Below, in pieces: positions 39,706 through 63,803 of a stretch of DNA of 64,000 bases. The stretch comes from a virus (lineage: Duplodnaviria; Caudoviricetes): positions 1 to 64,000 of the IMG/VR virus record IMGVR_UViG_3300001598_000040; one strand, given 5' to 3'. Every line of letters starts with the position of its first letter. Within the stretch, counting starts at the first letter, position 1. The position numbers and the translations under genes are program-made. Under the pieces are notes generated by a model. The model was given only the letters and a program-made list of their open reading frames with translations. It made no database searches and was not told where the DNA came from.

Positions 39706-40316
39706 ATAAAATGATTTTATTACGATTTTAAATTAGACCTTCGCCTTGCAATTAAATATTTTCTATTTTCTTCAGTCACAGTGTAGATATATGTGAACTT
39801 ATAGCCGCTAAACCATAAGCTATATATCTAATGAATATTTCGCAATCCAACTTCGCACTTGTTGGGATGTTTACCAACAACTTTCACCCGTCATTCACAT
39901 AATTTGATACATTTTATCATAATTGTTAATTTACTCAATGTTATCGCCAATTTGGGCTACTCGAACTTTAAACTCATCTTATACTCTACTTTCATAGTAT
40001 CAACAGCGAACCTTATTATTGGTATTTCTTGAGTTTGCTATAAACTACCAATTTATAACCTTATCAAGATTATTCTCCACAGGAGCGTCTATTATTAAGG
40101 CGATGAGAATAATACTTTAAATAGCAATATTCAATTGTACATTCTACCAGAACTCTTTGATTTATACTCAAGCAATAACTATATCACTATAATTATTTTC
40201 ATATATACCAAGTATCCTTAGTATAAAATCCTATCCCTCTTTAAGGTAGAACTCTCAGCCGCATAACATTGCGGTTTACACTGAGTTAATTTAAAACCAT
40301 AATAAAATCATCTTAT
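39706..40316 (-). ncRNA. Candidate large structured ncRNA (~611 nt), ROOL/GOLLD-like
   Basis: No ORF in the track; ends 40316-40287 and 39735-39706 form a contiguous 30-bp helix with three G.U pairs only on the minus strand; many internal helices and GNRA loops; next to tRNAs. Confidence 0.8.
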
Positions 40317-40480: not shown

Positions 40481-40557
40481 TGGGTGCGAGAACAGGATTT
40501 GAACCTGTGACCTTCTGATAATGAGTCAGACGAGCTACCAAACTGCTCCATCTCGCT
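40481..40557 (-). tRNA. tRNA-Met(CAT), initiator-like body with atypical features
   Basis: Full cloverleaf, encoded CCA, unpaired 1:72, fMet-like D arm; anticodon arm UCUGA-CUCAUUA-UCAGA. Confidence 0.88.
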
Positions 40558-40639
40558 ATATGTAAAGATGTGATAACCTTAACTAAAAGGGAGGATGCAC
40601 TATGGAAAACACATTTTATTTTTATCACATCTTCATTAC
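40558..40639 (-). ncRNA. Candidate paired-termini antisense RNA (5' leader of tRNA-Met)
   Basis: 12-bp perfect stem (40633-40622 with 40576-40565) closing a 45-nt loop containing UUCCAU...CCUCCCUUUU. Confidence 0.5.
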
Positions 40640-40645
40640 ATATAT

Positions 40646-40674
40646 ATTATATCAAAAATTTTTTTTAAAATCAA
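40646..40674 (-). promoter_or_regulatory. sigmaA promoter for the tRNA-Met/ncRNA transcript
   Basis: TTGATT-17 bp-TATAAT. Confidence 0.8.
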
Positions 40675-40803
40675 ATTTTTATATAATATATTTTTAAACA
40701 TCTCTAATCCGCACGATAGTCCGATAACTTGATGTTTTGAGTTTGTCGAAAGACTTGAGAAAAAAAATTTTTTTTGAAAGGAGGCATTTAAACTAGAAGC
40801 CTC

Positions 40804-40879
40804 TGGAGCTAGTGATAAGAATCGAACTTACAACATCCTCATTACAAGTGAGGTACTCTGCCTATTGAGCTACACTAGC
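40804..40879 (-). tRNA. tRNA-Thr(TGT)
   Basis: GCTAGTG/CACTAGC acceptor, CCTCA-CTTGTAA-TGAGG anticodon arm, TTCGA, CCA. Confidence 0.95.
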
Positions 40880-40885
40880 ATAAAT

Positions 40886-40973
40886 TGGAGGAAAGTGTGA
40901 GATTTGAATTCACGGAGGTATTACCCTCTACACATTAGCAATGTGTTGGTTTAAGCCGCTCACCCAACTTTCC
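40886..40973 (-). tRNA. tRNA-Ser(GCT)
   Basis: GGAAAGT/ACTTTCC acceptor, ACACA-TTGCTAA-TGTGT, long variable arm, CCA. Confidence 0.93.
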
Positions 40974-40977
40974 ATAT

Positions 40978-41053
40978 TGGTGAGAATGGAGAGGCTTGAA
41001 CTCTCAACTCCAACATTAAAAGTGTTGTACTCTGCCTATTGAGTTACATTCTC
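40978..41053 (-). tRNA. tRNA-Lys(TTT)
   Basis: GAGAATG/CATTCTC acceptor, CAACA-CTTTTAA-TGTTG, TTCAA, CCA. Confidence 0.95.
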
Positions 41054-41283
41054 GTGTGGGCGGTTGTGTGTTATACACTAAAGACTAACCGCCTTAGCCT
41101 ATTAAATATCTGCCAAGCGTTTCAAGCACTCTTTAGTTTCTATTTAATCAATAGAAACAATCACGCATAATCCATTAGTGCTATGGATGTTTGGACTCAC
41201 TCTAAGTAACTACGCCGCATTTCAGCTTTGCGTTCTTAAAGGATGTTGTGTCATTTTTAAATCGCACACACATTTTGCGATAT

Positions 41284-41367
41284 TGGTGCGGAAGGAGAGA
41301 CTTGAACTCTCACGACCGAAGTCTGCGGATTTTAAGTCCGCTATGTCTGCCATTCCATCACATCCGC
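41284..41367 (-). tRNA. tRNA-Leu(TAA)
   Basis: GCGGATG/CTTCCGC acceptor (one mismatch), GCGGA-CTTAAAA-TCCGC, variable arm, CCA. Confidence 0.92.
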
Positions 41368-47091: not shown

Positions 47092-47355
47092 TCAGTTACT
47101 ATCGTAGTTATAAATTGCGTCATCGCCATTTTCCTCTCTGTCATAAAGACCTTTATATTTCTCGTTTGACATATAAATAAAACTACCTTCATCTTCAAAC
47201 GCATATTCTATTCCTATTTCAAAATCATTAGAGAAAATAGATATATTATATCCTTGTTTTAATAATATTTCAATAATTTTATTCATATCACTTAGCAACT
47301 CTGAAAAATGGTCATAATTATTTTTTATAAGGTATAAAACTGTAGTTTTAACCAT
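47092..47355 (-). CDS. Hypothetical phage protein
   Basis: RBS-preceded ORF. Confidence 0.5.
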   Translation of the reverse strand: MVKTTVLYLIKNNYDHFSELLSDMNKIIEILLKQGYNISIFSNDFEIGIEYAFEDEGSFIYMSNEKYKGLYDREENGDDAIYNYDSN

Positions 47356-52120: not shown

Positions 52121-52245
52121 GAGAATATTGATAATGATTGAGAATAGTGAAAATAGTGAAAATATTGAGAGATATTGAAAATATTGAGAATAGTGAAAAT
52201 ATTGAAAATATTGAAAATATTGAAAATATTGAAAATATTGAGAGA
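52121..52245. repeat. Tandem 9-bp repeat array (GAAAATATT and variants, about 13 units)
   Basis: Directly visible in the intergenic gap between divergent genes. Confidence 0.9.
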
Positions 52246-52531
52246 TGGGGGTGCCCAGTCCAATCCTTTATATACCTCAACCTCCCCTTCTCCTCTTTTT
52301 TATACTCGATTCGTATAGATACTCACCATAGGAAAATCCATATTGTCTTATAATAAAAAATATGATATAATTAATATATACTAAAGGAGAATATTACTAT
52401 AAACTAGCAACTTTACTAGTCCAAAGAGAACAGAAAATGATTAAATCAAATGCCCTGGATACTATGTCTATTACTTCAATGATAATGAAGCTGTGCGAGC
52501 GATAATAGAAGAGTTCAAAAATAAATAATCT

Positions 52532-52864
52532 ATGGGAGAATTCAAAATGAAAACAGTAGCAAATCAAAAAATAATAAAAATAGTAAAAGAAAAATGCGGC
52601 GAGGGGAATTTATATACAGCTATTAATTTATACGCCCTGCAAGAGGCTATGCAAAACCTGAAAGGAGAAGCATTGAAACTATGGTTATATTTAGCTAAGA
52701 ATCAAAATAACTACTCTCTAGCTTTAAGCCAAAAGGATGCGGCTGAGTGGGGAATAGGTAAAGATAGTTATTATAGAAGTATATCTAAATTAGAAGAGCT
52801 AGGATATCTTCAAAAAATTGATAATAATAGTAATATATACACATTTTATGAATATAAAGAGTGA
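52532..52864 (+). CDS. Winged-helix replication-initiator-like protein
   Basis: ALKLWLYLAKNQ......LSQ....WGIGKDSYYRSISKLEELGYL; followed by iteron-like repeats. Confidence 0.65.
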   Translation: MGEFKMKTVANQKIIKIVKEKCGEGNLYTAINLYALQEAMQNLKGEALKLWLYLAKNQNNYSLALSQKDAAEWGIGKDSYYRSISKLEELGYLQKIDNNSNIYTFYEYKE

Positions 52865-52909
52865 TATTATCACATTTCGCATGAATTTTATACTGTCATC
52901 AATTGAAGT

Positions 52910-52993
52910 TTCTCAAATTGCGAAAAATTTTTCTCAAATTGCGAAAAATTTTTCTCAAATTGCGAAAAAAAATTCTCAAATTGAGAAAAATTT
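52910..52993. repeat. Four tandem 21-bp iteron-like repeats (TTCTCAAATTGCGAAAAATTT)
   Basis: Copies start at 52910, 52931, 52952 and 52973; each has a near 7-1-7 palindrome. Confidence 0.92.
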
Positions 52994-53347
52994 TTCGCAA
53001 AACCAGTAGAGAAATAATACAATATATTACAAATAATATATAAATATTAAAAAAATATTACAGGCGCCGCTCCCCCCCCATCTCCCCACAGAGTGATAGC
53101 CCCGCAGTTAAGAGTGCGGTTCAGTAAATAGTGGAGTCACTTGCCTGAGGCTACGAAGGCAAGTGAAACGTAACAGAGTACCTTCACACCCTGAACCCGC
53201 TCTTCTTTTTTTTTCTTTTTCTCTGGTCTTGAAAAATTGGCGTTAGCCAATTTTTCGCTGCTTTTCCATAATTTAGGAAAAATGGAAAAATATGGAAGCG
53301 GCTCTAATTGTTTGAAAAAATGCCATAAAGAGGGATATATGGAAGTT

Positions 53348-53382
53348 CGTTTATTGCCGCAAAATCCTGCGGCAACAAACCG
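53348..53382. repeat. Conserved intergenic hairpin element, copy 1
   Basis: GGAAGTT-CGTTTATTGCCGCA-AAATCC-TGCGGCAACAAACCG. Confidence 0.7.
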
Positions 53383-53513
53383 ATCGTTAGGTAGGGGATG
53401 AGAGGGAGTACTGATAAATGGCTTAGGTATGCGGGTTTATGGGAAACACGGGTTTTAGAGCAAAGGGACGAGAATGCGGAAAAAGTTTCTATATATGGAT
53501 AATTTTGGAAGTT

Positions 53514-53548
53514 CGGTTTGAGGCTAGCTTCGCGCCGCCCTCAAACCG
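53514..53548. repeat. Conserved intergenic hairpin element, copy 2
   Basis: GGAAGTT-CGGTTTGAGG...CCTCAAACCG-CT. Confidence 0.8.
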
Positions 53549-53610
53549 CTCAAGCCTTTTGTGCAATTTGCACAAAAAAAGATATGGGAATAATTCCCAT
53601 ATCAGTTACT

Positions 53611-53916
53611 TTATTCCCTTTTACTTATATCAATTATAAAATCATCGGGATTGACAAAAATTTGAGTAATTGTAATATTTTCATCATATTCAAATTCTTC
53701 TATTGTGAGTGCTTTGCTAAAATTCGTTATAGTATATATTATTTCTGCGTGTTGACCACCATTTGGAAAACAGATAATATAACCGTTCATTTCTTCTCTA
53801 TCACTCGATAGAAGATAAAAATTTCCCTCATCATCTATAAATCCACTACTTTCTAATAAATCAAATTTTTTGTTCAGTTTTATATCTGTCATATTAACTT
53901 TTATCATATATAACAA
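53611..53916 (-). CDS. Hypothetical early protein
   Basis: RBS GGAG; followed by terminator 53581-53603. Confidence 0.55.
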   Translation of the reverse strand: MLYMIKVNMTDIKLNKKFDLLESSGFIDDEGNFYLLSSDREEMNGYIICFPNGGQHAEIIYTITNFSKALTIEEFEYDENITITQIFVNPDDFIIDISKRE

Positions 53917-53955
53917 CTCCTTTTTTTCTCAAGGGGAGTATATACTCCCTTTCCG

Positions 53956-54366
53956 CTATTTACTATCATTCCGTCTAAACTTTAAATCTATTGAATACTT
54001 TTTACCTTTATATTCAAAATTTATCTGTTTCTGCGGGTTGATAATTTCAACATTGTCAGTATTCATTAAATCATTTTTTAGTGCGGTTGATATAAAATCA
54101 ATTAATTCAATTTTATTACTATCAATTTTTTGTGTGCGTGTTGCCTTTCGTCCGTACCCATTAACAACAGTTACAACCTTTGCACAATTCTTTAAGTTTT
54201 TAATAGCTTTTTTCTGCTCTGCGGTTAAATCGTCTTCAGCTTGCTTAGTAGTCATTTTATCAACTTTTTTATCATATTCAATGATGTCTAAAGCTTCTTG
54301 CTCTGTGCAACCTAATCTTTCAATTAGGTTGCACACTTGGTTGTTTTGATTATTCATCAACTTCAA
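53956..54366 (-). CDS. Hypothetical early protein
   Basis: LGCTEQEALDIIEYDKKVD; operon-packed. Confidence 0.65.
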   Translation of the reverse strand: MKLMNNQNNQVCNLIERLGCTEQEALDIIEYDKKVDKMTTKQAEDDLTAEQKKAIKNLKNCAKVVTVVNGYGRKATRTQKIDSNKIELIDFISTALKNDLMNTDNVEIINPQKQINFEYKGKKYSIDLKFRRNDSK

Positions 54367-54736
54367 CCTCTGTGGTATCTTCTACCACAAGGCTATAAAC
54401 CGATGACTTTTTGTCTTTAGTATTCTTTACTTTACCTTGTGCCACAAGCTCCGTCAATCTCGGTGTTAACTTTGATGTTGTATACTCATAACCTAAAGCT
54501 TTAACAATATCAGTAACTTTATAAAGCATATTTTCTTCCATAACCGATAGAATTTCATTCTCAATGCTGATAAACTCTTCATTCGTCTTTTTAGCTTTGC
54601 TACCTGACTTTTTAGTTAACAACTCAATTTCGTGATTTGCAAAATCAATAAGCTCTGTTGCAGAATTGTCTTCAACATTTTCTAATACTTCAATAATTGC
54701 CTTGTACATTTCTTTCTTTGTTCTTGAAAATTCCAT
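54350..54736 (-). CDS. Winged-helix protein, paralogue of 45875-46261
   Basis: ELIDFANHEIELL.KK; TDIVKAL....TSKLTPRLTELV.QG.V......SVYSL. Confidence 0.7.
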   Translation of the reverse strand: MEFSRTKKEMYKAIIEVLENVEDNSATELIDFANHEIELLTKKSGSKAKKTNEEFISIENEILSVMEENMLYKVTDIVKALGYEYTTSKLTPRLTELVAQGKVKNTKDKKSSVYSLVVEDTTEVEVDE

Positions 54737-54867
54737 AATTTTACCAAACCTTTCTTTTTTTAAAATATTGTTTATTAGTTTCTGTAGGTGTTTTACAAGG
54801 TTTTATTCCTACAACTTGCGGTACGGACACTTTAGTGAAATGAGGTTTTCTCTCATTCACTATAATC

Positions 54868-54896
54868 ATTATATCATACTTTTTTGCAAAAGTCAA
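54868..54896 (-). promoter_or_regulatory. Consensus sigmaA early promoter
   Basis: TTGACT-17 bp-TATAAT. Confidence 0.88.
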
Positions 54897-54905
54897 TATA
54901 CTTTT

Positions 54906-55682
54906 TTAATCTTTGTAGATATTGCCTAAAAGTTTAAACGGGAAAAAGATATTTTGTATATTTTTTATATTACCCTTTTTTTCTAATACTTTAGTTAAAA
55001 TTTGGGCTTCAATTTGAGCATCACTTAATGCGGTATGGTCTTCTATAAATTCATTATCTTTAAATAAGTATCTATATACAATTTCCGCCCCTGTTCTATA
55101 ATTACCAGCTTCTGAAACATACTCATTATCAACACAAAATTGTTTATATCTGTCATTGTTAATAAGATATTTACAACATAATCCCCACAAATCAATTATA
55201 TCATTTTTCATAGGTTTACCATTTTTCAGTTTATCACCAAAATTTACAGTAACATATGTAACTTTTTCATAATATCTATCTAAGGTATTATTATATAATG
55301 ACTTTATATATTCTGCGGTTTTCTTAATGGCTCGATTATCAAAAGCACTATTGTAAGCTACCATACATTCACACTCTTGCAAATCAGTTTGTATCATATT
55401 CATAATATTATTCCAACTGTCCGCAACTAATTTACCCTCTTGAATGGCTTTTAAATATCCGTCATATTTATCGCTAAAAAATGCTTTACTCATCATAGGT
55501 TTATTGTAAAATATTTCTTGTACAACTCTATTAACCTTTTTATATACCACTCCTTTTTTATCCACTATCACATATCCGATATCATATACCATAGGGAATA
55601 TCATACCATTAGTATCAACTCCCTCTATAAATGGTCTTGTTGTTTCTGTATCTAATACCATATACTTTTTAATTTTTCCCAA
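54906..55682 (-). CDS. DEDDh 3'-5' exonuclease
   Basis: VLDTET, AYNSAFD, DLW, HTALSDA. Confidence 0.9.
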   Translation of the reverse strand: MGKIKKYMVLDTETTRPFIEGVDTNGMIFPMVYDIGYVIVDKKGVVYKKVNRVVQEIFYNKPMMSKAFFSDKYDGYLKAIQEGKLVADSWNNIMNMIQTDLQECECMVAYNSAFDNRAIKKTAEYIKSLYNNTLDRYYEKVTYVTVNFGDKLKNGKPMKNDIIDLWGLCCKYLINNDRYKQFCVDNEYVSEAGNYRTGAEIVYRYLFKDNEFIEDHTALSDAQIEAQILTKVLEKKGNIKNIQNIFFPFKLLGNIYKD

Positions 55683-55683
55683 A

Positions 55684-56163
55684 TTATACCAACTCCATTC
55701 TATTTTCTGTAATTACATATTTTAATTTATAGCTTTTTAGTATCTCTTTAATTGCGGCTGTTTGGTCTTTAGTTTTGCAATATACAAAGAATACTTTGTT
55801 ATAACTATCAACTATTGATAATTCGCTATAGGATAATTTACTATTATGCAATAAGGCTCTAATATCATTTATGTTTTGCTTTGCGGTAAATTCAATTTTC
55901 CATAGTTTAGTTTTTTGTTTTTTTTCTTCAAATAACTTTACTATAAACACTCCTATAACATTACAAATGAATGTTATTAAACATTTTTCCCATAGGGGAA
56001 ATTCTGCTACAGTATAAATTAACATCACATTATAAAAAGCAAAATATCCACCACTCAATAAACTTGCTAAACCTTTTCCGCCTTTAACAGTTAAAATTGT
56101 TCTAACTGTAGAAAACACCACATTAACAATGCTTAAAGCGGTAAAAAATAATAAAAATTTCAT
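55684..56163 (-). CDS. Membrane protein, DUF5698/DUF2179 (UPF0316-like)
   Basis: Three TM helices, NV.FSTVRTIL.VKG....AS motif, soluble C-terminal domain. Confidence 0.7.
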   Translation of the reverse strand: MKFLLFFTALSIVNVVFSTVRTILTVKGGKGLASLLSGGYFAFYNVMLIYTVAEFPLWEKCLITFICNVIGVFIVKLFEEKKQKTKLWKIEFTAKQNINDIRALLHNSKLSYSELSIVDSYNKVFFVYCKTKDQTAAIKEILKSYKLKYVITENRMELV

Positions 56164-56275
56164 ATATCCAACTCCTATATTTATATTACAGATGTTTTAC
56201 AAGATTTAATTTCTGCAACTTGCTTGACTAACACATATTATATAGGTAACTCCTTTCCTTTACCTTACATATATT

Positions 56276-56304
56276 ATTATAGCACATAATAGGCAAAAAG
56301 TCAA
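56276..56304 (-). promoter_or_regulatory. Consensus sigmaA early promoter
   Basis: TTGACT-17 bp-TATAAT. Confidence 0.88.
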
Positions 56305-56570
56305 TACTTTTTTATAAAATTTTTAAAATTTAAACATTTTATCTAATAGAAATGAAATAAATATCATCTCTTTAGTATAAATTGCACAATAAATTAACTA
56401 CAATTGTAAATAAAGCAAAGAATTTATGCAATACAGAGAAATTTTAAGCGGTTTTCACAGTGGTATTGTGCATATTGCACAACACTTCCGCATTTTTGGG
56501 AGATATGTAAAAATATGGAAATGGTGTCAAAATATGGAAATTTTTCCTTATATAAGTAAAAATGTAAACT

Positions 56571-56606
56571 CGTTTCAAAGACTAAATCTCCGGCGTCTTT
56601 GAAACG
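56571..56606. repeat. Conserved intergenic hairpin element, copy 3
   Basis: AAACT-CGTTTCAAAGAC-12 nt-GTCTTTGAAACG-CT. Confidence 0.85.
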
Positions 56607-56646
56607 CTCAAATAAAAAGAGAGGTGGGGAATACTCCCCACACTCA

Positions 56647-57738
56647 TTATACACCGAAAGTTTTATATAAATGTTCTTGATATGCTTGTTGGAATTCATA
56701 ATATTCTTTATCTAATTCTGGGTATACTCTGCTATTATGTGCTTTTAAAAATTGAGCTATTAAACCATTATTATAAACTTCACAAGAGATTAAACTTTTA
56801 TCTATATCATTTTTCTTACGGATAAATACAATATTTGTATATTCAGCAATTATCGCATCTACAAATAATCTACCTATACAATTCTGTTGTTGTCTTCCCT
56901 CATTTATCATATCTTCTATTGTATGCGGTATAACTGTGATAAATTCATCTGTTTCAAAAAATAATTTATCTTCATTGCGAGTGGCTTTTTGTGTAAATCT
57001 TGTTGCTCTGTTCTTTCGCTTCCAATCTTGAGCTATTATAGCTAAATGGTAAAAATTAGTTTTATTATCTACAATTCCTGTTTCATTAAACATTTCTATA
57101 ATATCATCAATATAAGAAATTAAATCATTATATCTTATAATCTCAAAAATCCTATCACAATTTATCCATTTTTTTATTAGATTAAAATATGGTGATGTGT
57201 TATAATCTTGACGAAGAATATAACGCACTATTTCAATTGCAGAATAAGTCTGACTATCTTTTATTCCCCATTGCATACTATAATCTTCCATTTTCTTTGT
57301 TTGTATTTCTTGTAATATTTCAGTTAGATATGCATTTTCAATTTGAATATGTTTTTTTGTACAATACTTTAAAAATTTTTCAACAGTTTCAAATTGTTCT
57401 AACATATCCAATACTGCCCTTACATAATCTATGGTTACATTGACCGCACCTAATTTATCCGCTATTAATAAATAATTTTGGCGTCTTCCATCTTCTTTTT
57501 CAATTTCATTCAAAATTATAAGAATATTTAGTGTTGAGATATTACCAATTCTTGTATTCGGATATTTTCTACACCCTCTTACACAATAACAATCTGCCAT
57601 AAAACAAGGTGGGGTATTCATTTTTAATTTTTTTTGTGTTTTAGTATTTCTCCATATTCCGCTATTAATATCAAACGAATATTGATTACCTCTGTTGTTA
57701 GTATAAATAATATACTGTTTATCCTTTTTAATTTCCAT
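56647..57738 (-). CDS. PcfJ-like domain protein
   Basis: C-terminal P.T.EDM..EG.QQ.NCIG......IVFIR......SL.SCEV...QF; probable start 57738 (the longer ORF runs through a promoter and hairpin). Confidence 0.78.
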   Translation of the reverse strand: MEIKKDKQYIIYTNNRGNQYSFDINSGIWRNTKTQKKLKMNTPPCFMADCYCVRGCRKYPNTRIGNISTLNILIILNEIEKEDGRRQNYLLIADKLGAVNVTIDYVRAVLDMLEQFETVEKFLKYCTKKHIQIENAYLTEILQEIQTKKMEDYSMQWGIKDSQTYSAIEIVRYILRQDYNTSPYFNLIKKWINCDRIFEIIRYNDLISYIDDIIEMFNETGIVDNKTNFYHLAIIAQDWKRKNRATRFTQKATRNEDKLFFETDEFITVIPHTIEDMINEGRQQQNCIGRLFVDAIIAEYTNIVFIRKKNDIDKSLISCEVYNNGLIAQFLKAHNSRVYPELDKEYYEFQQAYQEHLYKTFGV

Positions 57739-57798
57739 AGTTAAATACCTCTCTCTTTTTTTTAATATATAATCTGTTCTCTTCTTGATTACATACTT

Positions 57799-57827
57799 AT
57801 TATACCACAGAAAAATAAAAAAGTCAA
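57799..57827 (-). promoter_or_regulatory. Consensus sigmaA early promoter
   Basis: TTGACT-17 bp-TATAAT. Confidence 0.88.
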
Positions 57828-57949
57828 GATATTTTGATACAAAATAGCAATATACATAAAAATAAATGCGGATTTCGGGATATATATGTACATTATGACG
57901 GAGCGTTAAGAATGTTAAAATTTTGCTTATATAGTAAAATGTGGAAATT

Positions 57950-57984
57950 CGTTTTGTTGGCGAAATGCCGCCGCCAACAAAACG
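57950..57984. repeat. Conserved intergenic hairpin element, copy 4
   Basis: GAAATT-CGTTTTGTTGGCG-9 nt-CGCCAACAAAACG-GCT. Confidence 0.85.
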
Positions 57985-58028
57985 GCTAATAAAATAGAGA
58001 TGAGTTTCCCCATCTCTACTACTTACTA

Positions 58029-58625
58029 TTACCACCGAATAGTTTGTTTGTCGCTCGATATTTCACATTCCCCTTTGGTTAATTCTTCTACTAATTGTAA
58101 AAAATGTTTATATTCTGAAGATTCATCATACTCGTATATATATTCTCCTAAACCTTGAACAATTGCTTTAGCAAGCTTTTCTAATTCTTCATTATCATCA
58201 TATAATCCAAACTTGATATTTTCCATTAAAACATCGTCATTATTTGTAATAAATTTAACTTTAGATTTATGCTTGTTAGACTTTTGTAAGCAATTTTTTG
58301 AACAACTACAACCAGCTTTAGAACAACATTGCGTTTTACAAAGAGAAGTCTTTTTTTCAAACATTGTTTGACCATTTCCACTATTCATATTCATATTATC
58401 CTCACTTTCGCTCTTTTCTGCTTCAAGTATTTTCATTCCATAAGTTACATCTTCTGCAGTTTCACCATAACCATATCCAACAAATGGAATTTTTTTATCA
58501 GTTAAAGCATTACATATATCTGTAAAACAGTTTCTATCTTTAGTTTCAATTACATTTTTGTTATCTTCCAACTGAACATTAAAACCATTTAATACCTTTG
58601 TTAATTCTTCTCTTGCGTTTACCAT
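58029..58625 (-). CDS. Hypothetical early protein; C-terminus paralogous to 58673-58933
   Basis: YDDNEELEKL...GEY...D...EYKH...GECE...W*. Confidence 0.65.
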   Translation of the reverse strand: MVNAREELTKVLNGFNVQLEDNKNVIETKDRNCFTDICNALTDKKIPFVGYGYGETAEDVTYGMKILEAEKSESEDNMNMNSGNGQTMFEKKTSLCKTQCCSKAGCSCSKNCLQKSNKHKSKVKFITNNDDVLMENIKFGLYDDNEELEKLAKAIVQGLGEYIYEYDESSEYKHFLQLVEELTKGECEISSDKQTIRW

Positions 58626-58967
58626 AATTCAACAACTCCTTAAATATTTTTTTAATTTTAAATTAATTTTTTTTACCATTCAAATGTAGTACAGCAATTA
58701 AATACCTCGCAATCACCATCAGCAACAGTATATATCATTTCAACAATATGTTGATACTCTTCATAAGTATCAAAATAACAAACATAATTGCCCTTACATT
58801 TAATAATATTTTTTATGAATTTTTCCAATTCTGGATTATCTTCATAAGTTTCGTCGATAAGTTCCTCTTTAAGTATCCTTACACAATGTGGTCTTACATT
58901 AAATTCCACTGAATGCTTTTTTTCTTCTGTCATAATTCAACAACTCCTTAAATATTTTTTTAATTTT
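58623..58967. repeat. Duplicated ~37-bp leader (58623-58660 and 58931-58967)
   Basis: CATAATTCAACAACTCCTTAAATATTTTTTTAATTTT present twice, containing RBS and start codon. Confidence 0.9.
58673..58933 (-). CDS. Hypothetical early protein, paralogue of the 58029 C-terminus
   Basis: YEDNPELEKF...GNY...D...EYQH...GDCE...W*. Confidence 0.65.
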   Translation of the reverse strand: MTEEKKHSVEFNVRPHCVRILKEELIDETYEDNPELEKFIKNIIKCKGNYVCYFDTYEEYQHIVEMIYTVADGDCEVFNCCTTFEW

Positions 58968-59054
58968 ACCATTTTACTGTATCATTACCGAACCCATCTG
59001 CCCAATCTAAACCGCAATCATTTTGTAACCCCCTTTCCTTTATCTTACATACTT

Positions 59055-59083
59055 ATTATAGCACATATTTAGTAAAAAGTCAA
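59055..59083 (-). promoter_or_regulatory. Consensus sigmaA early promoter
   Basis: TTGACT-17 bp-TATAAT with TG extension. Confidence 0.88.
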
Positions 59084-59206
59084 TACTTTTTTATTCAAAA
59101 TAGCAATATATATAAAATAAAACAGCGGATTTTGGGATATATTAGATATATTGCACAACGCCATTGCTATGTTAAATTTTTCCATTTATATAAGAAAATG
59201 GAAACT

Positions 59207-59240
59207 CGTTTTGCACGCAAAATTCTGCGCGTGCAAAACG
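59207..59240. repeat. Conserved intergenic hairpin element, copy 5
   Basis: GAAACT-CGTTTTGCACGC-10 nt-GCGTGCAAAACG-CT. Confidence 0.88.
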
Positions 59241-59282
59241 CTAAAAGTAAAGAGTGGAAATTTCTTCCACTCTGTCCATTAT

Positions 59283-59549
59283 TTAGATTTTGGTAGCTTT
59301 ACTACAAAAATCATCTTCAAATACTTCTTTGCATTTATCATTCCAATCAACAACATTAATATTACAATATCCACAGTTTTTATTTAATGCCGAGTCAAAA
59401 GCAGTGAAACTATAATGCATACAATCTTTGCACTTGATGACTTCGACAAAATCTGATTTATTTTTAAATCTACCACAAAAACTTGCGAAACATAATATTT
59501 CATCATCACAACTATTATAGTGTATACAATCTTCACAAGTATTCATCAT
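59283..59549 (-). CDS. Cys-rich hypothetical protein
   Basis: CEDC.HY..C...C..F....FVEV.KCKDC.HY...C...DDFCS. Confidence 0.65.
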   Translation of the reverse strand: MMNTCEDCIHYNSCDDEILCFASFCGRFKNKSDFVEVIKCKDCMHYSFTAFDSALNKNCGYCNINVVDWNDKCKEVFEDDFCSKATKI

Positions 59550-59899
59550 TCAATCTCCTCGAGCCAATATTTCTTTCTACAATCTTCACAATAATAAATA
59601 CTACATTGTGATTTATTACTTAAATTTGCATCTAAAGCACAAGGAGATATTTGAGAAAATCCATCTTCAGCTATTTTTGTGTTCGGAAACATTTTCAAAA
59701 ACTCACTTTGTCTTGTCTTTGGCTGGTGCTTATCAATCCAATCGAGAATTATTTTGTTTGCTTTGTTAATCTCGTCTAAAATGTTTGTTCTGCTATAAAG
59801 ACAACGAATGTTACAAATAGGTCTAATCGGGCATTCCGCACATTCTTTAGCTGTATCACATATTTTCAATGTATCATAAATCATAGCTTTTCTATCCAT
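59546..59899 (-). CDS. Cys-rich protein, paralogue of 48459-48983
   Basis: KTRQSEFLKMFP...I.PC.LD...C...CEDC...YWLEE. Confidence 0.65.
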   Translation of the reverse strand: MDRKAMIYDTLKICDTAKECAECPIRPICNIRCLYSRTNILDEINKANKIILDWIDKHQPKTRQSEFLKMFPNTKIAEDGFSQISPCALDANLSNKSQCSIYYCEDCRKKYWLEEIE

Positions 59900-60302
59900 T
59901 AGTTTAACTCCTCTTCATAGTAATTATTAATTTTAATTCTCAAATCTTTTAAACATTCATCACATAATTTAATATTTGCTTTTGGATATTCATTGAAACG
60001 AATTGTATTAATTTCATCAAATAATTGATTACATCCAACACACAAATGTTTTGTTTTTAAAATATTCACCATTCTATATCAACTCACTTTCTTGATAATA
60101 CCCCTACAATTACAGGAACAACTGTAACCATATAATAAGAAAATAACCTATCTTTTAAACTAACCGCCAAATTTTCCTTTCCATATTTCTTACAATCTTT
60201 ATGGTATGCAATTAATATGTATAACAGTATCATTCTTTACCAACTCCTTTAATTTCTTCCCGCTCTTATCATTATATTTTCCTCCTTTCGGAGGGCTGAT
60301 AT

Positions 60303-60656
60303 TCAGCCCTCCAGCTCTTCTATAAATCCTTTAAAATTTTGCCAACCTGTATGATAGAATAAAACCGCTTCCATAGTTTCTATATTATGTCCGCCTATCA
60401 TTACCGCACCTCTAATGAAATCCTCAGTGGCAATTCCCATTTCTACCAAATAATCCCACATCTCATCTGCACTTTGAAGAACATTTTCATTTACTTCATT
60501 CTCTAAAAATTCGTCTTCCATTTCATCAAGAAGGTTGTAGTAGTCATCTTCAATATCAATTCCATTTTCAAAATTTCTTGAAAATTCAAGTGATATTTCA
60601 TCTTCCATACCTCTTCTTGAAATAATATCGTTTACCATTTGTTCTTGTGTCATCAT
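60303..60656 (-). CDS. Hypothetical early protein, paralogue of 60986-61255
   Basis: EMWDYLVEMGIAT...G.NIETME.VLF..TGW..F..F. Confidence 0.65.
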   Translation of the reverse strand: MMTQEQMVNDIISRRGMEDEISLEFSRNFENGIDIEDDYYNLLDEMEDEFLENEVNENVLQSADEMWDYLVEMGIATEDFIRGAVMIGGHNIETMEAVLFYHTGWQNFKGFIEELEG

Positions 60657-60689
60657 ATCGACAACTCCTCTCTTTTATTTACTATAGTC

Positions 60690-60718
60690 ATTATACCATA
60701 TATATATACATTTGTCAA
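60690..60718 (-). promoter_or_regulatory. Consensus sigmaA early promoter
   Basis: TTGACA-17 bp-TATAAT with TG extension. Confidence 0.9.
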
Positions 60719-60897
60719 TACCTTTTTGAAAAATAATTTAAATTTTTTTTTGATTTGTGAAATATCACCAAACTTTTGCCGTAAAATGTGATAATGTTTG
60801 TATATAATGCACAAATCCGCATTTTGGGATTATTGGTAAAGACTGGAAGCGTTTCCAAAAGCTGGAAATTTTCCCTATATATGGAAAAAGTGAAACT

Positions 60898-60932
60898 CGT
60901 TTTGTGCGTTAAAATTCAGCGCGCACAAAACG
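60898..60932. repeat. Conserved intergenic hairpin element, copy 6
   Basis: GAAACT-CGTTTTGTGCG-13 nt-CGCACAAAACG-CT. Confidence 0.88.
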
Positions 60933-60985
60933 CTAAAGGTATGAGCCATTTCTTCTCATACCCTTAGCGTTATTTTGGTGAAGAT

Positions 60986-61255
60986 TTACTGTGCGTGTTT
61001 GTCCGCTATAAACTCTTCAAAAGTGTTATAGCCTGTACAGATGTACAAAATAAGCTCCATAGTTTCAATTATATTGCCGCACGCCTCAGTCATTCTATTA
61101 ATATCTCTCGCAGTAGTAAGACCAGTTTCTATAAGGTAATCCCTCATCTCTCCCAAAAGTCTTGAGATGGGAATAAAGTTATCCTCATTGTCATAGTATC
61201 CGTCTAAATAGATGATGTGCATAAAATTCATTTCAGTATGTGTCATAATAAACAA
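60986..61255 (-). CDS. Hypothetical early protein, paralogue of 60303-60656
   Basis: EMRDYLIETGLTT...GNIIETMELILY..TGY.TF..F. Confidence 0.65.
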   Translation of the reverse strand: MFIMTHTEMNFMHIIYLDGYYDNEDNFIPISRLLGEMRDYLIETGLTTARDINRMTEACGNIIETMELILYICTGYNTFEEFIADKHAQ

Positions 61256-61305
61256 TCTCTCTTTTATTAAATTAATGGTTCGTAGCTCTTCTTGACTACA
61301 CCTAT

Positions 61306-61334
61306 ATTATATCATAGAGAAAAATATTTGTCAA
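61306..61334 (-). promoter_or_regulatory. Consensus sigmaA early promoter
   Basis: TTGACA-17 bp-TATAAT with TG extension. Confidence 0.9.
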
Positions 61335-61492
61335 TAGATAAAATAAAAGTTTGTATAATCTATACAAGAATACGGCTCGAAATATCAATTAGTTTGTGCA
61401 ATATGCACAATCATAGAGGAAATTACCATAATATGGAAATGCTTCCAGAATGTGGCAAATTTTCCCTATATATCAAATTGGTAGAAAAGCCA

Positions 61493-61753
61493 TTAATTGG
61501 CTTTTCTTACCACTTCACTATCCACTATTTGCCATTCCCGCATATCATCTTTGGTATTACCAATTTTTACCTTTACTGTATCGCCTTTACCAACACTGCT
61601 ATTTTTGAATTGGTACAATTGGTCATATATGGAAATGGTAACTATTCCCTTTTCTACCTTTAACGCTTTTCTCGTGTACTTTGTTCTTGTTGCCTCATAT
61701 CCCACAACCGCAAAACTACCTATCACCAACAAAACCGCTATAACTTTTTTCAT
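61493..61753 (-). CDS. Small exported or membrane-anchored protein
   Basis: MKKVIAVLLVIGSFAVVG N-terminus followed by an OB-like segment. Confidence 0.6.
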   Translation of the reverse strand: MKKVIAVLLVIGSFAVVGYEATRTKYTRKALKVEKGIVTISIYDQLYQFKNSSVGKGDTVKVKIGNTKDDMREWQIVDSEVVRKAN

Positions 61754-61811
61754 ATCTATACACTCCTTAAAATTTAATTTGTTGAGCGGATTAGCTCCGC
61801 TCTTTGATTAC

Positions 61812-62102
61812 TTATACAATACTATCAAATATTATTGATTTATCTTGGCTATCAATCACAATATACATTAAACATCCGTCAATGATAATGTCTATATCAT
61901 TGTATCCGCTTGGCAATGCATAGTCATTAAATTTATAATATTCACACCAACACAGATTATCTTTTATTCGTTCAAGCTGGTTATTATTTAATCTAATTTC
62001 ACATTCTACAGAAGTGAAATTCTCAATGGATACATCACTAAACCTAATGCCTTTAAAAGCTAAATTGCTATTGAATACTTCCGATACTGTAAAAATACTC
62101 AT
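61812..62102 (-). CDS. Hypothetical early protein
   Basis: AAGAGG RBS, probable start 62102. Confidence 0.55.
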   Translation of the reverse strand: MSIFTVSEVFNSNLAFKGIRFSDVSIENFTSVECEIRLNNNQLERIKDNLCWCEYYKFNDYALPSGYNDIDIIIDGCLMYIVIDSQDKSIIFDSIV

Positions 62103-62158
62103 TTTTATACACCTCTTAAAATTTAATTTGTCGGGCGGATTTAATCCGCCCTTGATTT

Positions 62159-62455
62159 TTACCATATTAAATATATATAAGTATCATTCCATACTACCAT
62201 ATATTCCCTGTCTATCTGTTCAAATACTACAGTATCACGATGTAGATTAATTCCATTTTCTAACAAATAGATATCAAGTCCGTCATTAGATTTGTCCAAA
62301 ATGTGAAAATTAAATTTTTTCAAAATTTCATTTTTTATCGTTTGCGTGTTGTAGTCATAAGTTGCAAATATTAAAATGTGCGGCTGTTCCTCATCTGTTA
62401 AAACTGTGCGTGTGTTGTCTGTTAGATACCTAACTAAGTTTAATAATGTTGTCAT
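62159..62455 (-). CDS. Hypothetical early protein
   Basis: AAGGAG RBS, probable start 62455. Confidence 0.55.
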   Translation of the reverse strand: MTTLLNLVRYLTDNTRTVLTDEEQPHILIFATYDYNTQTIKNEILKKFNFHILDKSNDGLDIYLLENGINLHRDTVVFEQIDREYMVVWNDTYIYLIW

Positions 62456-62516
62456 TTTAGAAACACTCCTTAAAAAAATTTTTTTGTTTGTGTGGCTCTG
62501 TCCTAACCACAATTAA

Positions 62517-62545
62517 ATAATAACATACTTTTAAACATTTGTCAA
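62517..62545 (-). promoter_or_regulatory. First leftward early promoter
   Basis: TTGACA-17 bp-TATTAT with TG extension. Confidence 0.8.
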
Positions 62546-62710
62546 TACATTTTTAAAAAATAATTTTGAAATTTTAATACTTTATATACATTACACAAAA
62601 TAAAATATAAATATAATAATTCTTTTATGCATATTGCACAGGGGGGGTATAAAAAAGGATTTTTTTGGAAAAAATAGAATAGGCTGGCGGGTGGCTCCCA
62701 ATTCACGCAC

Positions 62711-62758
62711 CAAAATGATTCTCATTTCTATCAAAATGATTCTCATTTCTATCAAAAT
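62711..62758. repeat. Tandem 21-bp direct repeat (CAAAATGATTCTCATTTCTAT x2 plus a partial copy)
   Basis: Exact duplication abutting the -35 of the rightward promoter. Confidence 0.9.
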
Positions 62759-62787
62759 TTGACTTTTCTAAAAATTTTTGATAAAAT
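62759..62787 (+). promoter_or_regulatory. Rightward sigmaA-type promoter
   Basis: TTGACT-17 bp-TAAAAT with TG extension. Confidence 0.78.
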
Positions 62788-62810
62788 AACCATAAAGGAG
62801 GACAAAAACA

Positions 62811-63803
62811 ATGCAATTTTTAGATTATTCAATAACTTCTTTAGAAAAAAGAAAAGAAATAGTTAATTCAATTTTAAAAACAGAAAATTATAATTTAGAA
62901 TCTTTAGCTACTTATCTTATATCACCTAAATTAGAAAAACAAGAGAAATTAATTCTTACAGATAGCAGAGAAAGTACTATAAATAAACACGAAACGTCTT
63001 ATGAGGGTTTAGTTAGTAAATTAGAAGGTGGAGAAGACACACTCTATCACATGGAGGCGCATAACAAAAACATCATCCTTCATCCTAAAAAAGTATTAAA
63101 TAAAAAAGAAATAGAGTCAGATAAATTTACAAAACAGATTTATGAAAGTGCGCAGAGTCTGAAGGAATGGATAAAAGAGAGAGAAGTATCTGAGTTACAG
63201 AAGAGAATGCTGAAGAAGGCTGTAATAGAGTTGTATAAAGATATGTACACTGCATGGTCAAGCGCGCATCCAATAGTTAATATGACACAATGTTATCATA
63301 GTAATGCGGCTATATCACTAGAGGGGATATCATTTGCGGATCCGTCGGTTGTAGAAGCACTATTATGTAATTATAATGTACTGCGCGGGAGTAGGGGAAG
63401 AATTGCGGCAGACCTATGGTATATCTATATGGACTTTGCGGCGTTGCTGGATAGAGCGTTGATAGGGAGACCTATTTATAGGAAAATTGCGAATTTGAAA
63501 ATAGAGGGTCTATCTAATGAAGAAGTACAAGTAAGATTGCGGACGGAAGATAATGTTGGATACACAAAGGAATATATTTCTACTTTGTGGAGATCTAAAT
63601 TGCCGATTATTATTGCGGACACCGCGCGCAAAGAATATACAGAATGGTTGTTGACATATAAAGTAAAAGCTAAAGTTAAACAATGCACCTGTTGCGGAGA
63701 AATTAAATTAGCTACTACAGATTGTTTTTCTAAAGATAAAAGTAAAAAAGATGGACTTTATACAATTTGTAAAGAGTGCAGAAAGAAAAAGAATAAAAAA
63801 TAA
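62811..63803 (+). CDS. Hypothetical protein with HTH-like segment and C-terminal Zn finger; first gene of the rightward operon
   Basis: KIANLKIEGLSNEEV...EYISTLW; CTCC...F..D....DGL..ICKEC; AAAGGAGG RBS. Confidence 0.65.
   Translation: MQFLDYSITSLEKRKEIVNSILKTENYNLESLATYLISPKLEKQEKLILTDSRESTINKHETSYEGLVSKLEGGEDTLYHMEAHNKNIILHPKKVLNKKEIESDKFTKQIYESAQSLKEWIKEREVSELQKRMLKKAVIELYKDMYTAWSSAHPIVNMTQCYHSNAAISLEGISFADPSVVEALLCNYNVLRGSRGRIAADLWYIYMDFAALLDRALIGRPIYRKIANLKIEGLSNEEVQVRLRTEDNVGYTKEYISTLWRSKLPIIIADTARKEYTEWLLTYKVKAKVKQCTCCGEIKLATTDCFSKDKSKKDGLYTICKECRKKKNKK

Follow-up and report, generated by a model that had tools for sequence, protein, structure and literature searches.

A covarying hairpin at the start of putative promoter-early stem-loop-like regulatory blocks in the early-gene array of a distant SPbeta-like phage

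In T4-type phages, terminator and promoter are combined in composite cassettes known as promoter-early stem-loops (PeSLs; Arbiol et al. 2010, PMC2839356; Comeau et al. 2014, PMC4122927). Each has an early promoter near the consensus, together with a stem-loop and an AT-rich region. They have been shown to terminate transcription, and they recombine mutually, producing indels and mini-circles without a dedicated recombinase (PMC2839356, PMC4122927). Another repeated element of early promoters is SPBRE, the 15-bp operator of the master repressor MrpR in Bacillus phage SPbeta, where about ten early promoters carry it (Kohm et al. 2023, PMC10516654). Here, we examined an early-gene array of the IMG/VR virus record IMGVR_UViG_3300001598_000040 (Caudoviricetes), in which a short hairpin recurs six times between small genes. 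The window, i.e. the whole stretch of DNA that was analysed, comprises the first 64 kb of this 84,216-bp record, which is ~54% complete. The best fit to the data is that the hairpin would be the first element of a paralogous regulatory block, and that such blocks separate early transcription units made of orphan genes of host-takeover type.

A regular-expression scan of the whole record returned exactly the six elements that a previous sequence-only reading of this DNA had listed, all of 34–36 bp, intergenic and in one orientation, and all placed within 53.3–62.6 kb. A seventh match to the expression, at 47163, was unrelated and formed no hairpin. We built a covariance model (R1) from the six copies, with the stem drawn by hand on their alignment. 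The scan of the genome with this model, which had been proposed together with the list, recovered the six copies with scores of 48.6–63.9 bits (E 1e-10 to 4e-15) and no further credible match, whether in the window or in the 20 kb of the record beyond it. All copies are given here on the minus strand. Hairpin A1 (53348–53382; 48.6 bits) is the most diverged, and its 14-bp stem contains two G.U pairs on that strand; hairpin A2 (53514–53548; 53.4 bits) has a 10-bp stem and a 15-nt loop. Hairpin B (56571–56606; 60.5 bits) has a 12-bp stem, the lower part of which (CGTTTC/GAAACG) carries a compensated change with respect to the usual CGTTTT/AAAACG. The remaining copies are hairpin C (57950–57984; 13–14-bp stem, 60.0 bits), hairpin D (59207–59240; 12–13-bp stem, 63.9 bits) and hairpin E (60898–60932; 11-bp stem with a 13-nt loop, 62.1 bits). 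Rfam returned no match on the hairpins, neither at the gathering threshold nor at E<=5.

The inner arms had been described as different among copies yet complementary, and the alignment bears this out, since 7 out of the 12 stem pairs were changed on both sides. The paired cells amounted to 87.5%, versus 32–46% when the 3' arm was slid by 1–3 columns, and none of 500 shuffles attained the observed covariation score. Every copy folded better than shuffled sequence, both as RNA (either strand) and as single-stranded DNA (ssDNA), with ssDNA fold energies from -11.6 to -15.4 kcal/mol. The upper 4–7 pairs were different in every copy with complementarity kept, and the conserved parts were the lower stem (CGTTTTG/CAAAACG), the 3' flank (GARYTTCCA) and the loop, which reads R-G-A-(A)-TTT(T) on the minus strand. 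According to RNAalifold on the four complete blocks, the hairpin was the sole shared structure and no flanking pairing was common to the blocks. Taken together, the compensatory changes and the RNAalifold result argue that folding is under selection and that the remainder of the block is linear motif. On this evidence, the hairpin is a stand-alone fold beside linear, operator-type motifs. We also considered a pairing of the loop with the TCCCAAAAT(CCGC/GCGG) motif ~95 nt downstream, which by eye appeared to covary. This was rejected, as the duplex was strong only for block C (-13.4 kcal/mol), the cognate pairs of D and E were no better than non-cognate ones, and RNAalifold gave no second helix. 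Transposon-like terminal inverted repeats around the block were likewise sought with a duplex-energy calculation, and no consistent repeat was found.

Alignment of the intergenic regions recovered the order that had been read on the minus strand, i.e. gene, terminator, hairpin, linear motifs, promoter and next genes. Similarity between blocks starts at the hairpin and runs for 170–480 bp through the promoter and leader. In front of it lies the upstream unit's own terminator-like hairpin, which has a different sequence in each unit and is placed 5–35 nt upstream of five of the hairpin copies. The hairpin is followed by a directly adjacent palindrome, ATTTTnCY-TATATA-RGnAAAAT, with TATATA invariant in all seven blocks. 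Next come one or two TTTCCATATT repeats, the TCCCAAAAT motif region (TCCCRAAAT, then CCGC or GCGG) and, in some blocks only, an operator-like palindrome, TGTGCA-N3-TGCACA. The distance from hairpin to TATATA is fixed, while the one from hairpin to promoter varies (~150–300 bp). We found seven promoters of the form TTGAC(A/T)-17-TAT(A/T)AT, each with an upstream TG (extended -10), so that the near-perfect sigmaA promoters of the earlier reading were recovered. Five of them (B, C, D, E and F) share the repeated upstream block, and in B, C, D and E this block begins with the hairpin. The claim that a promoter and genes come after every hairpin therefore holds for these four copies and fails for A1 and A2, whose blocks are degenerate and contain neither. 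The number of open reading frames (ORFs) per unit is 1–5, not 1–4 as first counted. Judging from the predicted terminators, the hairpins would lie outside the transcription units.

The array is cassette-like, and the resemblance to PeSLs that had been pointed out was supported: orphan genes are preceded by a terminator or stem-loop and by an early promoter near the consensus. In both systems, repeated intergenic blocks are clustered among small orphan genes and combine a stem-loop with an upstream AT-rich region and a near-consensus early promoter of host type. In both, the stem has semi-conserved ends and a variable middle, no dedicated recombinase is seen, and the blocks are alike enough to recombine. 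The differences are several. The lineage and host here are those of a distant SPbeta-like phage, probably of a Firmicute, and the hairpin comes on top of a separate terminator, which is not conserved, and makes a poor terminator itself. Between it and the promoter are 150–300 bp that contain several operator-type repeats, and its upper stem covaries while the loop and flanks are conserved. Finally, PeSL indels between close relatives and PeSL mini-circles have been demonstrated, whereas recombination at the present blocks is a proposal.

The second comparison follows from the lineage of the phage. The record encodes a PolC-like polymerase, a topoisomerase II, a RecJ-like nuclease, helicases and a sigma factor. 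The polymerase is ~38% identical to those of SPbeta-group Bacillus phages and of the gut phage Phass-1, and the sigma factor is ~33% identical to those of 134–142-kb Enterococcus phages. Because of these identities, we assign the phage to the SPbeta-like large phages of Firmicutes, among which it would be distant, and its host is probably a Firmicute. SPBRE thus offers the precedent of a repeated element at many early-operon promoters in a phage related through its replication genes. Its likely equivalents here are the linear repeats (TGTGCA-N3-TGCACA and the TATATA palindrome), which were likened to it by description only. In contrast to the element described here, SPBRE is an operator of duplex DNA with no reported hairpin, and no MrpR-like gene (tyrosine-recombinase fold) was detected in the 84-kb record.

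RNase III processing hairpins are found between the early genes of phage T7, and Bs-RNase III sites are found in the early RNA of Bacillus phage SP82. They share with the present array the use of conserved hairpins to punctuate early genes transcribed by host polymerase. Those sites, however, are placed within one long transcript and have a helix of roughly 20 bp, whereas the present hairpins lie past a terminator and upstream of the next promoter. Their stems of 10–14 bp do not reach the ~two helical turns (roughly 20 bp of double-stranded RNA) of an RNase III site.

The genes of the array show signs of local duplication. We counted 17 ORFs in the hairpin-bearing region, most of them without a Pfam or PHROG match, and one 198-aa protein matched only itself among 5.8 billion proteins. 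The exceptions were a 364-aa protein with a PcfJ-like domain (56647–57741, E 5e-13), a DEDD-type (DnaQ-like) exonuclease-like protein (54906–55682; phrog_20187, E 8e-33) and a MarR/winged-helix-like protein (54350–54736). One pair of paralogues is found in neighbouring units (60303–60656 with 60986–61255) and another one lies side by side (58029–58625 with 58673–58933). The proteins of the latter pair are only 28% identical, and the 38-nt translation-start regions before the two genes (58623–58660 and 58931–58968) are 100% identical, which suggests gene conversion or strong constraint. From the adjacent paralogue pairs and the identical start region we conclude that tandem duplication, and probably gene conversion, acted here. 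Several small cysteine-rich proteins are also encoded in the array (59283–60072), and they look like zinc-binding host-takeover factors.

Given the PeSL anatomy and the SPBRE precedent of a repeated operator at early promoters, we regard a PeSL-like nature of the blocks as likely. The blocks could have spread by tandem duplication, and homologous recombination between them would duplicate, delete or swap units with no need for a dedicated recombinase. The promoter-less blocks A1 and A2 would be remnants of such deletions. The linear repeats (TATATA palindrome, TTTCCATATT and TGTGCA-N3-TGCACA) may be binding sites of regulators that time early expression, as SPBRE and MrpR do in SPbeta. The hairpin itself would act as a folded nucleic acid and not as a duplex operator. 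Its most likely site of action would be the read-through RNA of the gene strand, where it could provide a back-up stop, a 3' end or a processing signal. In this way it would shield the control region of the next unit from transcription leaking past the first terminator. Promoters this strong would be expected to leak through one terminator, and a second structure may stop, pause or mark the read-through RNA. The conservation of the loop (R-G-A-(A)-UUU(U) on the minus strand) and of the 3' flank (GARYTTCCA) suggests that a specific protein also reads the hairpin. This role as an RNA insulator within the block is a tentative proposal, and we lean slightly against it when it is taken separately. 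For the PeSL-like block together with an insulating hairpin, the balance falls just short of even.

Several observations weigh against an RNA insulator in PeSL-like blocks. The hairpin is not a canonical terminator: five copies have loops of 8–13 nt, versus an expected 3–8 nt, the lower stem is a U run paired with an A run where a G+C-rich stem would be expected, and the tail AGUUUCC (A-G/A-U/C-U-U-C/A-C) has no immediate U tract. Only copy D, one out of six, passed a simple terminator scan. If transcription stops efficiently at the upstream terminators, the hairpin would seldom be present in RNA. Block F appears to work without the hairpin even though the stem-loop that precedes it has no U tract. 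The conserved loop and 3' flank would fit protein recognition on DNA equally well. The G.U pairs are split between strands, with two in A1 favouring the minus strand and one in E favouring the plus strand, and we discarded them as a means of strand assignment because the two copies contradict each other. The mosaicism that recombination between blocks should leave gave a weak signal: block B was nearest to E in its upstream part (72%) and to D at the promoter (77%), with small differences. Finally, searches of IMG/VR, JGI metagenomes, GTDB genomes and GenBank phages, in versions that may lack records very close to this genome, gave no sequence with the hairpin.

The latter result comes from several searches. 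Megablast against GenBank phages gave no match, and pattern scans of IMG/VR, JGI metagenomes and GTDB genomes gave chance matches only (<=25 bits on R1). A protein-anchored search of GTDB genomes returned no loci. The R1 search of protein-anchored IMG/VR loci and of five whole records of relatives found no hairpin; the best match in relatives, in Enterococcus phage EF1 (23.8 bits), was inside a large coding gene and was rejected. The distant relatives, which were reached through the sigma factor, keep the synteny, with an array of small leftward genes diverging from the sigma gene, and carry repeated promoter blocks of their own, in which inverted TGTGAA boxes are found. Since these relatives have the plan without the R1 hairpin, the plan would be common to the lineage and the hairpin specific to this phage; in the searched data, it is limited to one uncultured phage. 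Two of the relatives' loci have blocks (L016 2440–2580 and 5880–5990; L014 3334–3426 and 4927–4984) with a GC-rich centre and inverted TGTGAAG/CTTCACA box pairs, placed directly upstream of TTGAC-17-TAAAAT promoters and sometimes between divergent promoters. This arrangement looks like a multi-site operator. TGTGAA...TTCACA boxes were also seen in equivalent regions at L016 5880–5940 and at L029 2950–2967, 3311–3328 and 9611–9628.

Among the alternatives, we first weighed a role of the hairpin at the DNA level. Extruded as a cruciform or folded as a single strand, and together with the abutting palindrome, it would serve as the binding site of a protein, from the phage or the host, that turns the early units on or off in concert. 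The sequence conservation of the lower stem, loop motif and 3' flank, with only the upper stem varying, would suit such a platform, as would the fixed spacing to the TATATA palindrome combined with a variable one (~150–300 bp) to the promoter. The ssDNA folding energies given above, the richness of the blocks in operator-type repeats and the inverted TGTGAA boxes at the equivalent place in relatives point in the same direction. However, the loops of 8–13 nt would put a high cost on cruciform extrusion, the analysis gave no candidate for a structure-specific binding protein, the variable promoter distance counts against a direct contact with RNA polymerase, and module F drives its gene without a hairpin. 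On balance, we consider such a platform unlikely, though worth keeping in view.

A role on the opposite strand appears improbable. Here, the hairpin would be the 5' stem-loop of antisense RNAs of the plus strand that start at TATATA and extend backwards across the 3' end of the unit upstream. The TATATA, invariant in all seven blocks, lies ~20–25 nt upstream of the hairpin on the plus strand, some blocks have weak -35-like hexamers 16–18 nt before it (in C, TTAAGA-18-TATAGT), and plus-strand terminator-like hairpins exist inside the array (61784–61802 and 62133–62151). On the other hand, TATATA does not have the critical T at -7, the matches to a -35 box are poor and, in most blocks, unflagged, no plus-strand terminator comes after the hairpins, and A1 pairs better on the minus strand.

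The sequence-only reading had noted an analogy with integron attC sites and HUH-recognised hairpins, and this was not supported. In such a reading, the hairpin, with or without the TATATA palindrome, would be an attC-, HUH- or Xer-like folded-DNA substrate, and a recombinase from the missing half of the genome or from the host would capture and exchange self-expressing early-gene cassettes in an integron-like manner, in an array of virulent-phage type. As in attC sites, the inverted repeats are imperfect, with conserved ends and a variable, complementary core, and they lie at cassette boundaries. The span is constant (34–36 bp), the hairpin is placed exactly at the start of the homology between blocks and is adjoined by a recombinase-core-like 9-6-9 palindrome, and two blocks at the array end are "empty". 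The core sites of attC are RYYYAAC (R'') and GTTRRRY (R'). The ends found here are CGTTTTG and CAAAACG, and GTTTTG has pyrimidines where purines are required. The stems are perfect in five of the six copies, with none of the extrahelical bases of attC. Every unit has its own promoter and terminator, unlike the promoter-less cassettes expressed from Pc, and no attI was found. No integrase had been seen in the window, and this held when the search was extended to the 84 kb, which gave no match to PF00589 (Phage_integrase). Of the HUH recombinases, which recognise hairpins such as those of IS200/IS605 ends and REP/RAYT, the Y1 family was covered and gave no match (PF01797, Y1_Tnp), and there was none for serine recombinases (Resolvase). 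As the record is only ~54% complete, this absence is weak evidence. All sites are directly oriented, and plain homologous recombination between blocks that are 60–80% identical already explains duplication and loss. We also examined the 11-6-11 dif site of Xer recombinases, with the B. subtilis sequence taken from PMC4578258, although this dif may not be that of the host. One block matched the B. subtilis XerD arm at 9 of 11 positions with a different spacing, and matches with <=3 mismatches were at chance level (604 observed versus 602 expected); thus, we rejected it. A dedicated recombination site is therefore quite improbable. These failures lower the claim of an attC or HUH site but not that of recombination at the blocks, which PeSLs achieve via homology alone.

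Most improbable of all is that the hairpins are ssDNA signals for lagging-strand priming or staged stops for DNA entry: they have a common orientation and the array adjoins a putative origin (iterons at 52137–52246, a DnaD/Rep-like winged-helix ORF and 21-bp repeats), but we know of no precedent that ties such signals to each promoter block, and their spacing tracks gene units and not a regular replication or entry interval.

Other site types were tried and rejected. A solitary CRISPR repeat (an RNA anti-CRISPR) was represented in the GTDB scan by 29 loci with one match each, at <=25 bits and with no arrays, and mimicry of a single repeat also misfits the variable upper stem. Matches to CodY, cre, parS, Noc, Ter, CsrA and sporulation-sigma sites, compared by eye with remembered consensus sequences, were not consistent across copies in any case.

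Returning to the PeSL-like blocks, their anatomy on the minus strand is as follows. Module B (56164–56646) contains a terminator (56624–56641), the hairpin, the TATATA-centred palindrome box (56536–56569), two TTTCCATATT repeats (56512–56521 and 56531–56540), TCCCAAAAATGCGG (56489–56501), the operator-like palindrome (56467–56481) and a promoter (56276–56304) with a 112-nt leader; genes 55684–56163 and 54906–55682 come next. In module C (57742–58028), the terminator (57995–58018) and hairpin are followed by the palindrome box (57917–57948), TCCCGAAATCCGC (57868–57880), the promoter (57799–57827) and the PcfJ-like gene. Module D (58934–59282) comprises a terminator (59251–59273), the hairpin, a palindrome box of the form TTTCCATTT-N8-AAATGGAAA (59176–59205), TCCCAAAATCCGC (59125–59137) and a promoter (59055–59083), with a 121-nt leader before the side-by-side paralogous genes. 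Module E (60657–60985) starts with a terminator-like hairpin with a weak U tract (60938–60962), followed by the conserved hairpin, the palindrome box (60864–60896), TCCCAAAATGCGG (60817–60829), the promoter (60690–60718) and five small ORFs between 60656 and 59283. Module F (61256–61492) is the entire block minus the hairpin: a stem-loop without a U tract (61490–61521), the TATATA box (61465–61489), TTTCCATATT (61430–61439), the operator-like palindrome (61395–61409) and a promoter (61306–61334) in front of gene 60986–61255.

The two remaining promoters of the minus strand do not belong to such blocks. The head of the array is a divergent control region (62513–62810) with a minus-strand promoter (62517–62545), an operator-like palindrome (62626–62640) and a plus-strand promoter (62759–62787) for the sigma-factor gene (62811–63803). 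An internal early promoter, H (region 54737–54905 on the minus strand, promoter 54868–54896), has a 131-nt leader and no terminator, hairpin or upstream block. At the other end of the array, hairpin A2 follows the terminator (53581–53603) of the last gene, and its block has a TATATA box and a degenerate TTCCCATAAACCCGC motif without a promoter. Between this terminator and A2 there is another operator-like palindrome, TGTGCAATTTGCACA (53560–53574). In total, TGTGCA-N3-TGCACA has four sites in the 84-kb record (53560–53574, 56467–56481, 61395–61409 and 62626–62640), all of them intergenic and in the early array, and it is likely the operator of a dimeric regulator.

Two intercistronic repeats near the head of the array (61750–61804 and 62099–62153) are 82% identical and contain one hairpin each, GAGCGGA..TCCGCTC and GGGCGGA..TCCGCCC, which differ by one compensated pair and lie ~25 nt before the ribosome-binding site. 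On the plus strand, T runs come after both hairpins, which are listed as terminators (61784–61802 and 62133–62151), and a sigma-A-like promoter with 11 of 12 matching positions was found at 61910–61939. Antisense transcripts from the 61750–62153 region are possible.

The window has a G+C content of 27–33%, and almost all its genes are on the minus strand. Next to the array we identified a putative replication origin (52137–53013), with ~12 tandem 9-bp iterons (ATTGAAAAT) at 52137–52246, a plus-strand ORF of 110 aa (52532–52864) that resembles HTH_36, DnaD-like and replication-initiator-like winged-helix proteins, and four to five 21-bp repeats (TTTCTCAAATTGCGAAAAATT) at 52909–53013; the repeats also form long palindromes. 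Between the origin and the array, an ORF-free gap contains a G+C-rich stretch (53060–53262) that folds strongly on the plus strand (-69.1 kcal/mol, z -5.3 versus shuffled) and weakly on the minus strand (z -1.3). The stretch closes with a terminator-like hairpin of the plus strand (53230–53257) and has no Rfam match. We regard it as a candidate small RNA, which would be transcribed in the direction of the early array. Elsewhere in the window, a full-length ROOL RNA (271 bits) adjoins a cluster of five tRNA genes (Met, Thr, Ser, Lys and Leu), at 39716–40309 and 40481–41367.

Early "host-takeover" regions are the home of the fastest-changing anti-host genes of phages, and to our knowledge little is understood of the gain, loss and co-regulation of such genes except in T4-type phages. 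For this array, the proposed cassette plan and resemblance to PeSLs are right, and a specialised recombination is unsupported. On present evidence, the feature would be a well-documented, lineage-restricted form of a known type of regulatory cassette. The array shows the PeSL plan in an unrelated lineage of Firmicute type, and what it adds is a hairpin with fixed loop and flanks, the fold of which compensatory changes have preserved. This combination of a maintained fold and a fixed loop points to a specific reader, which may be a protein or an RNase. If the hairpin were a recombination site, it would represent a new mechanism of gene capture; if it insulates the units, it would provide a compact part for building strong promoters that do not interfere with each other.

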